The notes under the pieces: generated by a model
The model's database searches: none
What the model saw: only the letters and a program-made list of their open reading frames with translations
Told to the model about the DNA's origin: nothing
Assembly (NCBI GenBank): GCA_029855935.1
Contig: JAGSHN010000032.1
Location: 32,001-96,000, forward strand
Length of the DNA: 64,000 nucleotides
Source: Candidatus Thorarchaeota archaeon
GTDB lineage: Archaea; Asgardarchaeota; Thorarchaeia; Thorarchaeales; Thorarchaeaceae
Reading direction: 5' to 3'
Shown here: piece by piece, positions 42,148-46,921 of the stretch
How the letters are laid out: each line of letters begins with the position of its first letter
Position numbering within the stretch: the first letter of the stretch is position 1
Made by a program: the position numbers and the translations under genes

Positions 42148-42495
42148 TTCTATCTTCCCTTGACAAGACTCTTGGGATAGTCCTGATTGGCAAAGAAAGA
42201 GAAGCGAGTTCGTGACAGGTAGGGGTCGGAGAATCATCGCTCGGTACTGTGAACATTGACAGACAAGAGTCGATGCAAGACGCTTACAATCCCTTGCTCA
42301 TCAGCACTCAACCAATTGGTAAATAGAGCTGGCAATCTCGGTATTCAATCTTGTGGAACTCTAGACGCCAGAATTGGTGATGCATACTCTGGACCGGTTC
42401 GGTCACACTACGCGTTTCTTCCGGGAATGGGAGGCGACCTCGGGCGCTTGTCGCAAGCCTGTATCCCCAACGACGGATGAAGAGTTCTCCTCAGG

Positions 42496-43563
42496 CTATG
42501 TAGCAAAATAGTGGTCGAGGAAGAGTGTGACCCAGTCGTAGAATGACCCGAGCATTTTCCTCACGAGACCCACTGTTAGGTCGCGCCTGAGAATCATGTC
42601 GATGATGGCCTTTCTCAGGAACGGGTAGTAGTGTGGCAATGGCAGGACATTGAGAGGAAACTCCTTGTGCAACGTGAGGAAGGCGTTCACACGTTCAACC
42701 CACCTCGCGTTGATGAGGTCCTCTGAATACGTCGTTGGGTCCTCCAACACAATCGACTCGAGCTCAGCCAGCATTGGCGAGAAGATCTCGCGCTGGATCT
42801 GGTCAAATGAATAGCCGCTCACGCGGTGACTTGGCGACTCAGCAAGCCTTCTGTACAGCGCAGCAAGGTCGTCAGACCCGGGCACAGTGTAGACCTCCCG
42901 TCGCAGTCGCACGAGTCTCGAGACCTCCGATGAGATTCCTCTCGCCTTCTCAAGCACCGAGAAGACATGGATGAACATCTCACTGTCCCAAGCCGGGGAA
43001 CCGAAGATGTCCCTATACTCGCCAATCGTCTTTCTATAGGCCGCAGGGATGCGAAGCTCGTGCGGGCTGGTTATGCTCCATATGTTGAGAAAGATGAATG
43101 GCGGGAGGTCGACCTTGGTGCCCGGCGAGAGGCGATAGCTGGGGAAACAGTAGTTCCCGTCAACAACGATGAGGTCGGGCTCGAGTGGTGCCACCCCGTT
43201 CTCCTTTGCGTAGGCTGTCGGCGCGTCCCTGATCATCCCAAGGACCTGTTCGGGCGAAAGGGGACGGAACTCGCTCGGCCGGACCAAGTGCAGGTTGTCT
43301 CCTGCAGGGAGATAGTAGGCAGTGCCGAGTCCGGACAGCGAGAAGGCAGTCTCGAATCCCGTTTCGCCATCGAGCCTGATATCCCTGAGAGACTGGAAGA
43401 GGTCCTGATTCGTGTGATTGATGTCAACAGCCAGGACCTTCAGCGGCGGTGTACGTGATAGTGCCCACGTGACCAGTGCAACCGCAAGCGGAGTCTTCCC
43501 ACTGCCGCCCTTGTTGCTCGTCACAATGACCGTCTGTGGTCGTCCCATCTTCGTTGTTATCAC
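42496..43563 (-). CDS. Divergent ParA/MinD (SIMIBI) family P-loop ATPase
   Basis: Deviant Walker A NKGGSGKT, VLAVDIN, Walker B LIVVDG; long unrecognised C-terminal region. Confidence 0.8.
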   Translation of the reverse strand: MITTKMGRPQTVIVTSNKGGSGKTPLAVALVTWALSRTPPLKVLAVDINHTNQDLFQSLRDIRLDGETGFETAFSLSGLGTAYYLPAGDNLHLVRPSEFRPLSPEQVLGMIRDAPTAYAKENGVAPLEPDLIVVDGNYCFPSYRLSPGTKVDLPPFIFLNIWSITSPHELRIPAAYRKTIGEYRDIFGSPAWDSEMFIHVFSVLEKARGISSEVSRLVRLRREVYTVPGSDDLAALYRRLAESPSHRVSGYSFDQIQREIFSPMLAELESIVLEDPTTYSEDLINARWVERVNAFLTLHKEFPLNVLPLPHYYPFLRKAIIDMILRRDLTVGLVRKMLGSFYDWVTLFLDHYFAT

Positions 43564-43577
43564 CCCTTTCTGTACGT

Positions 43578-44516
43578 CTATCCAGTTCCATTCAGCAGGC
43601 CGAACACGAACGTCAGGACTGTTCCCCAGCCCACGTAGAGGATGAAGTCCATTGCGACCTGCAATGCTATCACGCCTGCAAAGGTCACCATCAGGCGCTT
43701 GATGATCGGCTCGGGGGAGGCCAGCCTGTTCAGCTCACCCTGCGCGCTCTCAAGCAGCCGAATGTTCTTCCTGAGATTTCGCATCGCATCCTCCAGCTTC
43801 GCCTTGATGTAGCCGGGGTCGTCCGAGAGTCGACCCTCCTCTAGCATTATCATAGCGTTCTTCCATCGCCGGCTGAAGTCTTCCATCGCCGATAGCACCC
43901 TGTGTCGTTTCTGCTCCACAAGCAGCTCGTACTTGTTCAGCTCGTAGACGACGACCTTGATGACCGAGGCCAACACTATGAGTGTGCCCAAGTTCAACAC
44001 GCTGCTCAGGAAGAACGTTATGCCCACTATGGGGCTCTGAGAGAAGAACTCCCGGATGATTGTCAGGCCACGAAGTCCTGCCGCCTTGTAGAGGGCGATG
44101 AACAGCAGCAACTTCAGCGTCAGGTACAGCCTCGACAGGCTCAGCCTGAGCCAGCTCCGGCTGACTGTTCCACCTGCCGAGAATGGCTTGTCGATGAAGA
44201 CGCCGAAGATTGTCCCGCCGATATTGAGCATGAACAACACGGAGACAGCGAACAGTGCAAGTCCGAGTGCAAGGCGCACCCAGCCTGTGACACTCATCAC
44301 TCCGTCATCGACGGTCTCAAGTACGTGCTGCATTGTCACAAAATCGTGTTCCGTCGCCGCACGCCACAGTGCATCTACGAGGTCTGGCCGCGAGTGTAGG
44401 TACGCAGCGAAGAACATCCCGTACAATAGGACAGCAGCGAGTGATGCAGCGAACACGGAACGGAAGAACGACCGGAGCCTGCTGTCGTTGGCTGTCCCGT
44501 AGATGGCGTGCGACAT
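43578..44516 (-). CDS. Multi-TM membrane protein with soluble coiled-coil hairpin
   Basis: About 4 TMs, ~80-aa charged helical region (YELNKYE...LNRLAS), then a C-terminal hydrophobic segment; 14 nt upstream of the ATPase. Confidence 0.75.
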   Translation of the reverse strand: MSHAIYGTANDSRLRSFFRSVFAASLAAVLLYGMFFAAYLHSRPDLVDALWRAATEHDFVTMQHVLETVDDGVMSVTGWVRLALGLALFAVSVLFMLNIGGTIFGVFIDKPFSAGGTVSRSWLRLSLSRLYLTLKLLLFIALYKAAGLRGLTIIREFFSQSPIVGITFFLSSVLNLGTLIVLASVIKVVVYELNKYELLVEQKRHRVLSAMEDFSRRWKNAMIMLEEGRLSDDPGYIKAKLEDAMRNLRKNIRLLESAQGELNRLASPEPIIKRLMVTFAGVIALQVAMDFILYVGWGTVLTFVFGLLNGTG

Positions 44517-44864
44517 TCTCGTTGCCCCCAAGCGGCATATGGGCCTCGAATGCTGTGTTAATATTGTTTGTTACTACGTCCTATGGGACAGAGCACGGCC
44601 CACGTGTCCTGACAATCCCCAGTTCAGATTCGGTGTTCACCCCACCACATTGATCAGAAACTGGGGGAGGTATGGCCCACCCGGCCCGGAGAGACGAACT
44701 GGTAGCGAATCCAATGAGTAAGGAACCGAGATATCGGGGTCTCGGAAGAGCCGAATAGTGATGGCAATTGCAATGGACTGTGTGAGAAGTCGGCAGATAG
44801 GAGTGACCACAGCATTGCGGCATTCTCATCTGACGCAGTCATCATGGGTGTTTCTGTTTGCGCT

Positions 44865-45617
44865 TCAGTAGTAGGCCCGTTCTGCTGGCGCATCATATCC
44901 CGAATATGTGTAGGGCACATACGCTTGAGTGAAGACATATGCGGCCAGAACATTCGATATCACTGATGCAGGGCCGCCAAGGAAGAAGAATATGGCTGTG
45001 GCCATAGCTACATCAGCCATACCTGTGAAGTGGCGTGCCTTCATAAACGAAACTCCGGCTAGGATGCCGTACGTGATCAGCATTATGATGGATATGACGA
45101 ATCCAAGGAAGAAGTAGTAGAGCATCCCCATTCCATAGAGTAGTAACCAGATTGCAGCAAACAGGCCGCCTCCGACCATGCCAATCCCTGCCGCAAAGAC
45201 GTGAAATCCGTCCCCGTAGTTCCTGTAGAACCCGTATATACCGACGGACTCCAATACGATTCCCAGCCCTGTCGCCATAAATCCGATGATTGGCATGTTC
45301 ACCATCAGGAATGGCCAGAATGCACAGGCAAGGATTCCTCCTGCTGCTCCGACCCAGAAGAAGTTCGGCGTTGGAACTCCCGTCGGCATAGGCTCCTCCA
45401 GTGGTGCTGCCTGAGCCAGCCCAGACTGAGAGGGGCCCTGCCCTGGTCTGGGCCGTTGTTGTCCCGGAGCCCCCCAAGGCGTCGCTCGTCCTTGCGCAAG
45501 ACAGTCCTTGCAATACAGCACTCCTTGGACGTCAACGGCACACTCCTCGCAGACGGCCTTGCCACAAGTCATGCAAGTCCCGACTGCATCACGGTCGTTG
45601 TGAACGAAGCACTTCAT
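44865..45617 (-). CDS. B-box-like zinc finger + multi-TM membrane protein
   Basis: CFVH-x7-CMTC-x4-CEEC-x10-CKDC, Pro/Gln linker, TM helices. Confidence 0.8.
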   Translation of the reverse strand: MKCFVHNDRDAVGTCMTCGKAVCEECAVDVQGVLYCKDCLAQGRATPWGAPGQQRPRPGQGPSQSGLAQAAPLEEPMPTGVPTPNFFWVGAAGGILACAFWPFLMVNMPIIGFMATGLGIVLESVGIYGFYRNYGDGFHVFAAGIGMVGGGLFAAIWLLLYGMGMLYYFFLGFVISIIMLITYGILAGVSFMKARHFTGMADVAMATAIFFFLGGPASVISNVLAAYVFTQAYVPYTYSGYDAPAERAYY

Positions 45618-46021
45618 CCCACTATGACCCTCCATGGCACGGAGATTGGCTCGGTTGTTGAACTGGCGACATATATTTGTACCTCCAACGTGTCAAACGG
45701 GCGGACACTCGTCGAGCGATACTGGTACAAACTAGCCTCCCGATGAGCACGAGATCACGAGCAGACGTGTTGTTCGGGCAGAGCGGGTGTGTCAGGGAGT
45801 AGATTCCCGAGACCTCGACGGTTTCTGGTGATGTCGAGGCAGAAGAGTCCGTGTCGACCAGCCCGCTCATATCCCTCGGGTCATCTGCGCAATTCTACAC
45901 GAGATTCGTTCTCGGGTTGCCGTACGAACACAGGCGCGCCCATTCGGAAACTGTGGGTCGCGACGAACACGACCAGACCTAGTCGCAGCCTGCCATCAGT
46001 CCTTTGGGCTGACTCGTTAGA

Positions 46022-46921
46022 TCACACACCACCCGTCCATTCCTCGCCGACTTGTGTGTCAATGTCAGTGTCCATATCTTGTTGGATTTCAGGAAGACCG
46101 GCTGGTGTATCGACTGGCCTCTCAAACGGTACATTGGCGTGGTAGAAGACGTATGCCACCAAGAGACCCTGGACAACGAGCCCCAAGAACAGAATGTAGT
46201 CGTTGACAACGGTGATAATGGTCGCAATGGCAACAATCGCGGCCGCTATCGTTGCTCTATCCCGGCCTGTGTAGTCGCGTACCAGAATGAGTGATATACC
46301 CACAAGTACCTCAGAGGCTGCCAGCATAAGAAACCCGTAACTTCCTCCCCAAAAGAAGATGAGCACAAATTCCTCCAGAATGCGGATGTAGGTGAGACAG
46401 TATAGCCCAAAGAGAAAGAAGACCCCGCCCGTGACGACGCCGAGAGTGGCAGACACAATGTGAAACGCGCCTCCGTAGTTCCAGTAGAAACCTACAAGGC
46501 CCACAGATAGAATCATTATACCCAGGCCCACGACTAGTAACGACGTGAAGAATAGGTAATCTAGTCCAATATACCAATGGAGCGGGGCCAACCCCGATAC
46601 GGCCATCAGAATACCACCAAGGAATCCTGCCATGAAGAAATTCCTGGAGGGACTACGTGTTGCTCTCAGACCCGCACGTGGTTGCAGTCCTCCGTATGGC
46701 GGTGGTTTCGGTTGTCTTGGCTGAGGTCGTAGTGGCCTGACCTGTCGGGGTCGGGCCTGTGGCTGTGGTCGACGTTGCTCGGATGCGGCCCGTCCGGTTG
46801 ACAGGCAGTTCTTGCAGTAGAGAATCCCTTGAACCAGAACCGCGCACTCCTTGCAGACGGCCTTTCCGCAGGTCGTACAGGTGCCCACACCGTCACGATC
46901 CGGGTGTACATAACATTTCAA
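46022..46921 (-). CDS. B-box-like zinc finger + multi-TM membrane protein (paralog)
   Basis: CYVH-x7-CTTC-x4-CKEC-x10-CKNC; shares NFF.AG, GFY.NYG..FH and TG motifs with its neighbour. Confidence 0.8.
   Translation of the reverse strand: MKCYVHPDRDGVGTCTTCGKAVCKECAVLVQGILYCKNCLSTGRAASEQRRPQPQARPRQVRPLRPQPRQPKPPPYGGLQPRAGLRATRSPSRNFFMAGFLGGILMAVSGLAPLHWYIGLDYLFFTSLLVVGLGIMILSVGLVGFYWNYGGAFHIVSATLGVVTGGVFFLFGLYCLTYIRILEEFVLIFFWGGSYGFLMLAASEVLVGISLILVRDYTGRDRATIAAAIVAIATIITVVNDYILFLGLVVQGLLVAYVFYHANVPFERPVDTPAGLPEIQQDMDTDIDTQVGEEWTGGV

Follow-up and report, generated by a model that had tools for sequence, protein, structure and literature searches.

What would a cell do with a ParA/MinD-type ATPase in which asparagine appears to occupy the position of the catalytic aspartate, and why should such an enzyme be encoded next to a membrane protein? 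This question is raised by two adjacent genes in a 64,000-nucleotide (nt) stretch of DNA, hereafter the window, from a Candidatus Thorarchaeota archaeon (assembly GCA_029855935.1, contig JAGSHN010000032.1, positions 32,001 to 96,000). One gene encodes an ATPase (P0001), and the gene directly upstream a polytopic membrane protein, its putative partner (P0002). Spatial organisation in prokaryotic cells is chiefly the work of ATPases of the ParA/MinD class, and to our knowledge nearly all members that have been studied depend on a DxD sensor for timed ATP hydrolysis. Our preferred answer, which we put forward tentatively and at somewhat less than an even chance of being right, is that the pair forms a membrane unit in which an ATP-latched dimer works with the partner, hydrolysis or release perhaps being dependent on that partner. 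The two genes and the nucleotide-binding motifs of the ATPase are as follows:

42496-43548, minus strand: ATPase gene P0001, ParA/MinD fold, 350 amino acids (aa) from the ATG at 43548; the open reading frame (ORF) extends further, to a GTG at 43563, and numbered from there has 355 aa
43578-44516, minus strand: partner gene P0002, polytopic membrane protein with about five transmembrane (TM) helices, 312 aa, N-terminus predicted to lie inside the cell
43492-43512, minus strand: deviant Walker A motif KGGSGKT with signature Lys18 and P-loop Lys23/Thr24, followed by Pro25; invariant in 22 homologues
43402-43425, minus strand: switch-I/sensor motif DINHTNQD (D47, N49, N52, D54), the Asn49 codon being 43417-43419
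43159-43176, minus strand: Walker B motif DLIVVD (D130...D135) in the ParA-clade form DhhhhD; invariant in the Thorarchaeota family

Residue numbers used here are those of the 355-aa ORF from the GTG at 43563. Both ORFs, KGGSGKT, Pro25 and the Asn49 codon had been described in a first-pass annotation of the window and are all present in the sequence. That annotation had read Asn49 as a natural change from Asp, and the residue proves to be conserved: it is invariant in the 22 aligned homologues and in all further Thorarchaeota loci, and nearly invariant in distant relatives. A private mutation or a sequencing error can therefore be rejected as its origin. Invariant in the same 22 proteins are K18, G22, K23, T24, Pro25, D47, N52, D54, D130 and D135, together with I48, H50 and Q53 of the sensor motif, in which residue 51 is T or V. 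In the wider group of relatives described below D135 is invariant, K18 nearly so, and D130 is partly kept.

The catalytic positions that matter for comparison are MinD D40, Soj D44 and Get3 D57. Changing the second switch-I Asp yields hydrolysis-deficient, ATP-trapped dimers; MinD D40A is such a hydrolysis-dead trap, and a Helicobacter pylori Soj D41A entry among the structure-search matches provides an example of the changed Asp. The assignment of Asn49 to this second position of the DxD sensor, with the first Asp kept as D47, is supported by its spacing from Walker A, by alignment with paralogues and by its place in the predicted fold. Counted from the Walker A Thr, the Asn stands at +22 to +25 in 19 family and superfamily rows and at exactly +23 in nine of them, with an Asp at +21. 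These nine have an alpha-1 loop of canonical length, whereas that of the window protein is 2 aa longer. The spacing of +23 is also that of the second Asp in the genome's own Mrp-type and ParA-like paralogues, and when MAFFT aligns the protein with five of that genome's canonical paralogues, D-I-N comes to lie beneath D-x-D. Finally, predicted strand beta-2 ends at D47 in the AlphaFold2 (AF2) model, and in the definition of the ParA clade the DxD sensor comes where core strand beta-2 ends (bioRxiv 10.64898/2026.10.19.760177).

The remainder of the ATPase looks like a ParA-type protein, if an unusually long one. The AF2 model (pLDDT 86.8, pTM 0.90) adopts a ParA/MinD-type fold along the whole chain. 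When it was compared over residues ~1-355 by VIA-align, the best match was 2oze, the delta protein of pSM19035 (Z 14.0, root-mean-square deviation [rmsd] 3.9, 239 residues), followed by ParA (Z 13.2, 8ray), McdA (12.5, 6noo), Cfd1/ApbC (12.2-12.3), MinD (11.9, 4v02), BcsQ (11.8, 6yar) and Get3 (10-11.8), so that no single known family stands out among the structural matches. VIA-align was used since the global superpositions of Foldseek were poor (TM-score 0.26-0.45, rmsd ~15); Foldseek did return a match to Soj (E 6.5e-5). Because the whole chain 1-355 aligns to structures of this fold (Z 14), the roughly 200 aa of C-terminus that the first-pass annotation had called unrecognised are not an extra domain, and appear in the model as the remainder of the ParA fold with helical insertions. 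With 239 of the 355 residues aligned to a ParA-type chain of 284 aa, the excess of ~100 aa over a canonical ParA probably resides mostly within the following stretch, the limits of the insertion being approximate:

42664-42951, minus strand: mostly helical stretch of the ATPase, residues ~205-300, with the invariant residues GSDDL and YSED..NARW (from the DSSP assignment of the model and the invariant alignment columns)

The last strand and its P-x-N-h-h-P motif are kept even in distant relatives, and the last helix (340-354) is confidently modelled as part of the fold core and not as a free amphipathic helix, the protein having no membrane anchor of its own. The beta insert that follows switch I in the ParA clade is present in the model as strands 72-96.

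At the level of sequence the ATPase lies outside the characterised subfamilies, as the first-pass annotation had supposed. The curated models that match it cover only its N-terminal 40-90 residues, and all Pfam matches are below cut-off (the best, CbiA, 19.7 bits versus 25.4, AAA_31 16.2 versus 27, MipZ 12.3 versus 20.7); the Pfam scan gave no match of P0001 to the Get3/ArsA family PF02374. Likewise below cut-off are the NCBIfam matches, namely BcsQ TIGR03371 (15.3 bits versus 157.85, E 0.01, N-terminus only) and the MinD models TIGR01968/PRK10818 (11.9 and 10.8 bits versus cut-offs of 212.9 and 508), and matches to ParA models fall short as well. No PDB sequence matches the ATPase significantly, PADLOC-DB 2.0 yields only mad8 at E 0.062, and no fused or longer form was found at E <= 0.001 in a word-based search, which is weak evidence on that point. 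The ATPase thus has the Walker A, Walker B and fold of the ParA clade but neither its DxD sensor nor a score above any curated sequence cut-off, and falls outside MinD, BcsQ, Get3/ArsA and every PADLOC family.

If the ATPase works at the membrane, the partner would be a candidate to receive it, and the soluble elements of the partner that could do so are these:

43719-43940, minus strand: residues 193-266, which lie between TM4 and the last TM and are predicted to form a helical hairpin in the cytoplasm (AF2 model)
43941-43958, minus strand: invariant KVVVYE at the membrane exit, ahead of the hairpin
43779-43814, minus strand: motif GY.KAKLEDA.R at the tip of the hairpin, where the soluble part of the partner is most conserved

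In the layout suggested by the AF2 model (pLDDT 72) and hydropathy, a basic N-terminus is followed by TM1, an acidic helical loop that probably lies outside, TM2 and TM3; TM4 then runs into a helix (176-230) that returns as a second helix (234-266), and the protein ends in a hydrophobic stretch of ~40 residues (269-308) that could form one or two TM helices. The tip of the hairpin is invariant in 18 homologues at G235, Y236, A239, K240, L241, E242, D243 and R246, which makes it a natural candidate for a protein-binding site. No family in Pfam, NCBIfam or PADLOC matches the partner, and look-alikes in a language-model atlas reach only low scores (0.78). Co-folding of two ATPase chains with partner residues 186-272, two ATP and two Mg gave a score of 0.00 and is neutral on binding.

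The two genes belong together well beyond the window. A word-based protein database search returned 36 homologues of the ATPase (~350 aa, 55-72% identity) and 26 of the partner (45-63%), and since both are conserved in this way they are real genes and not chance ORFs; almost all named homologues of either protein are labelled Thorarchaeota. Whole-genome searches covered 86 genomes of the window's family and located a full-length ATPase in 23; the partner profile matches exactly those 23, always on the same contig and directly upstream of the ATPase, so that the linkage of the genes proposed in the first-pass annotation extends to every carrier. The spacing at the loci that were measured ranges from a 16-nt overlap to 29 nt, the latter being the window's own value from its likely ATG start. 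The pair is present in eight of 16 genera and was not found in three well-sampled ones (0/28, 0/7 and 0/4 genomes), with the proviso that these are metagenome-assembled genomes and incomplete, so that absence means not found; apparently the pair was lost in, or never acquired by, some genera.

In seven genomes from six genera the pair is the sole conserved element within ~10 kb, no third conserved gene having been found in that range. Identity within the genus is 68% for the ATPase, 62% for the partner and 67% for a nitroreductase orthologue, and a maximum-likelihood tree of 20 ATPases follows the genus labels, with eight label changes, the minimum possible, a value that none of 200 shuffles attained. 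Thus, judged by its sequences, the pair is a stand-alone two-gene unit that is inherited vertically. It is single-copy in most carrier genomes. One Thorarchaeota genome also contains a second, divergent module (G349:C161:14884-15840; L063:2171-3892) whose ATPase has the motif DTNPQNSN and whose own polytopic partner of 235 aa overlaps the ATPase start. Mobility of the module was considered as the cause of its variable flanks and rejected: the window's neighbour genes lie on three different contigs in a genome of the same genus (G003), and such variability is found throughout these genomes rather than at the module in particular.

Beyond the Thorarchaeota family, ATPases with the D-x-N sensor are a rare lineage far from canonical ParA/MinD in sequence: a profile search of 1.84 billion representatives retrieved only 18 proteins at E <= 0.001. 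The distant matches measure 305-390 aa, save one fusion of 727 aa, and nearly all read D-x-N-x-x-N-x-D. Full-length members occur in at least six other Asgard families. The group also reaches beyond Asgard archaea, to a protein of the bacterium Candidatus Parabeggiatoa, a virus-like contig and a cluster of bacterial look-alikes, and one member lies on a contig with the typical bacterial neighbours rimM-trmD-rplS. The look-alikes, a cluster of 363-aa bacterial proteins, are the best shape match in the ESM Atlas (TM-score 0.67, 308 aligned residues), ordinary ParA models reaching ~0.5. The virus-like contig (L061:1284-4179; JGI 3300009529, 17.4 kb) carries a row of a membrane/zinc-ribbon protein, a partner-like protein with TM helices, a helical stretch and a last TM, and the D-x-N ATPase, together with genes for the large subunit of a terminase and for a DEAD/ResIII helicase. 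The 727-aa fusion (P0079, from an ENA metagenome) is the only fused form seen, retrieved by the profile search, and joins a STAND/AAA-like N-domain (GERRTGKTS) to a D-x-N ParA-like domain (IDLNWENADL), which hints that one branch of the wider group may take part in signalling or conflict systems.

Membrane proteins accompany many of these distant relatives as well. Among 27 contexts surveyed outside the Thorarchaeota family, a polytopic membrane gene lies immediately upstream on the same strand in 18 (162-658 aa, 3-14 predicted TM helices), and a divergently transcribed one is found in two. Several distant partners repeat the plan of N-terminal TM helices, a soluble helical stretch and a last TM, and of ten other partners none reaches a Pfam cut-off. 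The upstream protein has 10-14 TM helices and no Pfam family at three loci of other Asgard families (L064:4088-5479, L072:4024-5424 and L076:3531-5504, all minus strand), and these large partners end in an acidic cytoplasmic helix, for example FENILRDLERILQEE. Two Asgard loci have a membrane gene followed by two tandem D-x-N ATPase paralogues (L023:4822-9423 in GCA_016840025.1, where an AAA ATPase with a helical N-domain comes after the tandem pair, and L070:56-3251 in G115:C208). In both, Walker A of the first paralogue is degenerate (NRSASGKT or SRSGSGKT), and the two may thus form a heterodimer with one inactive subunit.

How might such a unit work? The invariant Asn and the membrane partner together suggest a slow, ATP-held switch at the membrane. 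The ATPase retains the residues for ATP binding and for the sandwich dimer (the signature Lys, the P-loop Lys and Thr, Asp47 on the Mg side and Walker B), and with Asn in place of the water-activating Asp its ATP-bound dimers would be expected to be long-lived, serving as a latch rather than as a fast-cycling motor. The soluble ATPase lacks an anchor and the partner is predicted to present a conserved helical hairpin to the cytoplasm; the dimers could therefore act at the membrane either by docking on this hairpin or by completing hydrolysis and release only upon engagement of the partner. By analogy, such docking may be conceptually akin to Get1/Get3 or to TadZ-type anchors, as the first-pass annotation had proposed. 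As for the output, our best guess is that the unit controls or assembles the membrane function that the partner itself performs.

The closest precedent for such a latch is BcsQ, which acts with BcsR in enterobacterial cellulose secretion. Both BcsQ and the Thorarchaeota ATPase are ParA/MinD-class SIMIBI proteins in which the water-activating Asp of switch I is naturally missing, position 39 of BcsQ being Cys or Ser. BcsQ functions within a membrane complex together with a small partner of its own; it was purified as an ATP-loaded sandwich dimer with weak ATPase activity and is proposed to drive 'one-shot' assembly (PMC7840130). It is also the best NCBIfam match of the ATPase and one of its structural matches. 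However, BcsQ lacks the cis P-loop Lys (Thr15), whereas the Thorarchaeota ATPase keeps both lysines (Lys23 is retained), has Asn rather than Cys or Ser, is ~100 aa longer and is archaeal, with no cellulose synthase genes nearby. Moreover, the BcsQ partner is a soluble 7-kDa peptide and not a polytopic membrane protein, and sequence similarity is limited to the P-loop region, so the ATPase is like BcsQ without being a member of its family.

Several observations weigh against an ATP-latched membrane unit. Even BcsQ is thought to hydrolyse ATP eventually, and the Asn is therefore no proof of inactivity. In seven of the 27 contexts there is no membrane gene, all of them belonging to one family (f14), most of whose loci lack an upstream one; the membrane link of D-x-N ATPases is therefore frequent but not universal. 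In addition, the partners of the distant relatives show no similarity to the Thorarchaeota partner in searches with the partner profile (all E > 0.1). Finally, the sensor itself can be aligned otherwise. HMMER puts the gap elsewhere, making D47 the first Asp and turning the second Asp of MinD into an insertion, which leaves this gapped alignment ambiguous at the sensor position, and an ungapped match to E. coli-type MinD (NCBIfam, residues 11-56 versus 4-49) equates D47 with MinD D40.

The last of these points opens the alternative that Asp47 is the water-activating residue, as in the single-Asp proteins Get3 and NifH, and that the enzyme is an ordinary hydrolase, in which case ATP hydrolysis could be normal. 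In the window protein itself Asp47 does stand at the canonical +23 from the Walker A Thr. Yet this spacing arises in a protein whose alpha-1 loop is 2 aa longer, and in the nine rows with a loop of canonical length it is the Asn that occupies +23 and the Asp +21. Along with the stacking of D-I-N on D-x-D in the paralogue alignment and the end of beta-2 at D47, this leaves us to regard an ordinary hydrolase as unlikely, though an explanation to be taken seriously.

It is also possible that the pair is an anti-virus or conflict system in which a ParA-like switch controls an upstream membrane-perturbing effector, as proposed for PCTM. ParA-clade NTPases have been recruited repeatedly to predicted immune systems, some with upstream 2TM or SLATT-type effectors, and Li, Burroughs and Aravind propose ParA as a membrane switch in their survey of ParA-centred conflict systems, which covers ParA proteins with fused TM segments (PCTM) and many partner types and mentions neither Asgard archaea nor a D-x-N sensor in its main text (bioRxiv 10.64898/2026.10.19.760177). 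The P0079 fusion, the group member on the terminase-bearing contig and the partial distribution of the pair (23/86 genomes, 8/16 genera) would all fit such a role. However, PCTM ParA carries a C-terminal TM domain, whereas the Thorarchaeota ATPase is soluble, and ConB2 typically has Arg for a Walker A Lys, whereas both lysines are present here along with the DxN sensor. The inheritance of the module looks vertical, its ATPase tree following the genus labels and its divergence equalling that of a housekeeping-type orthologue; it is mostly single-copy, and neither protein is fast-evolving. Nor is there a significant PADLOC match, the neighbours in the window are metabolic or transport genes, and the variability of the flanks is a general trait of these genomes. 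We thus consider a conflict function quite unlikely.

A further alternative is a targeting or insertion system of the Get3/Get1 kind, in which the dimer would bring a client to the membrane, there to be opened by the hairpin as its receptor. In Get3 (TRC40/ArsA) and Get1/WRB, too, a SIMIBI dimer is received by a cytoplasmic coiled-coil hairpin between TM helices, and both proteins of the pair give weak structural matches to this system. Partner residues 175-288, the TM-hairpin-TM unit, align to WRB (6so5_D, from the WRB/CAML/TRC40 complex; Z 9.9, rmsd 4.0, 114 residues), Get3 chains are among the structural matches of the ATPase, and BcsR, MinE and Get1 bind the same face of their respective SIMIBI dimers (PMC7840130). 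However, the WRB match is level with dozens of generic helical hairpins at Z 9-10 (Vipp1, CHMP4B, designed bundles), which makes it a lead rather than evidence, and the Z of 10-11.8 for Get3 is no better than that of other SIMIBI families. A possible kinship of the partner with the Oxa1/Get1 superfamily, whose core of TM1, a cytoplasmic coiled coil, TM2 and TM3 encloses a hydrophilic groove, depends on this same WRB match, made with a model of pLDDT 72. Get3, with its switch I of the TDPAHN type, retains the catalytic Asp (D57) and has a helical subdomain for binding clients, a hydrophobic groove for them and a dimer held together by zinc. None of these can be seen in the Thorarchaeota ATPase, whose helical stretch is charged and neither hydrophobic nor Met-rich; moreover, the genome already has an ArsA/Get3-type gene of its own, with the motif STDPAHS (TDPAHS). 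A Get3/Get1-like role of the pair is very unlikely.

There is only a slim chance that the pair positions a division, motility or envelope complex after the manner of MinD, the partner being a membrane anchor and/or a MinE-like activator. MinD, FlhG, MipZ and ParA are the nearest structural or sequence neighbours of the ATPase, which shares with MinD the deviant Walker A with its signature Lys, the fold, a presumed place of work at the membrane and a partner that would be expected to govern hydrolysis by binding the dimer, and which has, at strands 72-96, the beta insert that binds MinE or ParB in known systems. However, oscillating and gradient systems need regular ATP turnover, and there is no linked cargo gene. 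MinD differs in its D-x-D sensor, its soluble partner MinE and its own C-terminal amphipathic membrane helix, whereas the predicted C-terminal helix of the Thorarchaeota ATPase aligns with the fold core. Equally improbable is an ArsA/ArsB-like pump, in which the ATPase would, as a subunit, energise or gate a transport protein encoded upstream: the gene order does recall arsAB, where a SIMIBI ATPase gene stands beside a polytopic membrane gene, and the upstream partners of distant relatives are transporter-like with their 10-14 predicted TM helices, but the Thorarchaeota partner has only ~5 and matches no transporter family (0/10 partners reach a Pfam cut-off), and an Asn at the catalytic position speaks against sustained ATP turnover.

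The locus itself is compact. Two further elements bear on its expression:

43560-43566, minus strand: Shine-Dalgarno-like GGGGTGA, 11 nt before the ATPase ATG and 11 nt after the partner stop codon
44558-44565, minus strand: TATA-like AATATTAA, ~45 nt upstream of the partner ATG, a possible archaeal promoter of the gene pair (from the sequence only)

The start GTG of the 355-aa ORF (43563) lies within the Shine-Dalgarno-like site and every ATPase homologue begins at a Met that corresponds to M6, which points to the ATG at 43548 as the probable true start and to a protein of 350 aa. Database numbering is accordingly 5 lower than that used here, Asn49 being Asn44. The gap of 14 nt between the genes reported in the first-pass annotation holds from the GTG but widens to 29 nt from the likely ATG, and of the non-coding flanks of about 350 bp that it described, the upstream one stands (~348 nt, 44517-44864), whereas the downstream one is shorter (~258 nt, 42238-42495). 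A Pfam scan identified the window neighbours as phosphofructokinase, CorA, nitroreductase, small membrane proteins, two B-box membrane proteins and GNAT, with no ParB, MinE or pilus genes among them, in agreement with the annotation. The two B-box proteins are paralogues encoded directly upstream of the module (44865-45635 and 46022-46921, both minus strand) and share a plan of an N-terminal B-box-like zinc finger (C-x2-C...C-x2-C; matches to PF22586/PF00643, below cut-off), a Pro/Gln-rich linker and ~5 TM helices. Antisense ORFs of 134-165 aa run within both genes of the pair (42967-43458, 43902-44399 and 44098-44502, plus strand). As separate genes they were rejected, their tblastn matches elsewhere being the shadow of conserved genes on the other strand.

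It is tempting to look beyond Thorarchaeota and to propose that D-x-N ATPases and their upstream polytopic proteins are an undescribed and ancient class of two-component membrane machines, present in several Asgard families, some bacteria and at least one virus-like element. In each such machine a cytoplasmic helical element of the membrane protein would take up the ATP-latched dimer and provide the catalytic step that the ATPase lacks, an independent invention parallel to Get3/Get1 or MinD/MinE and serving membrane-protein assembly, targeting or gating. In this full extent the proposal is speculative and probably wrong in part or whole, if not so remote as to be set aside. What the ATP-latched membrane unit itself would mean is more immediate: a lineage appears to have fixed Asn at a catalytic position while keeping every residue for binding ATP and forming a dimer, and to have tied the enzyme to a dedicated membrane protein. 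After BcsQ, this may be a second, independent natural test of the use of an ATP-latched SIMIBI dimer, in a unit of two genes (~350 and 312 aa) small enough to be directly testable, and in an Asgard setting, where the machinery that organises membranes is relevant to how eukaryotic cell organisation arose.

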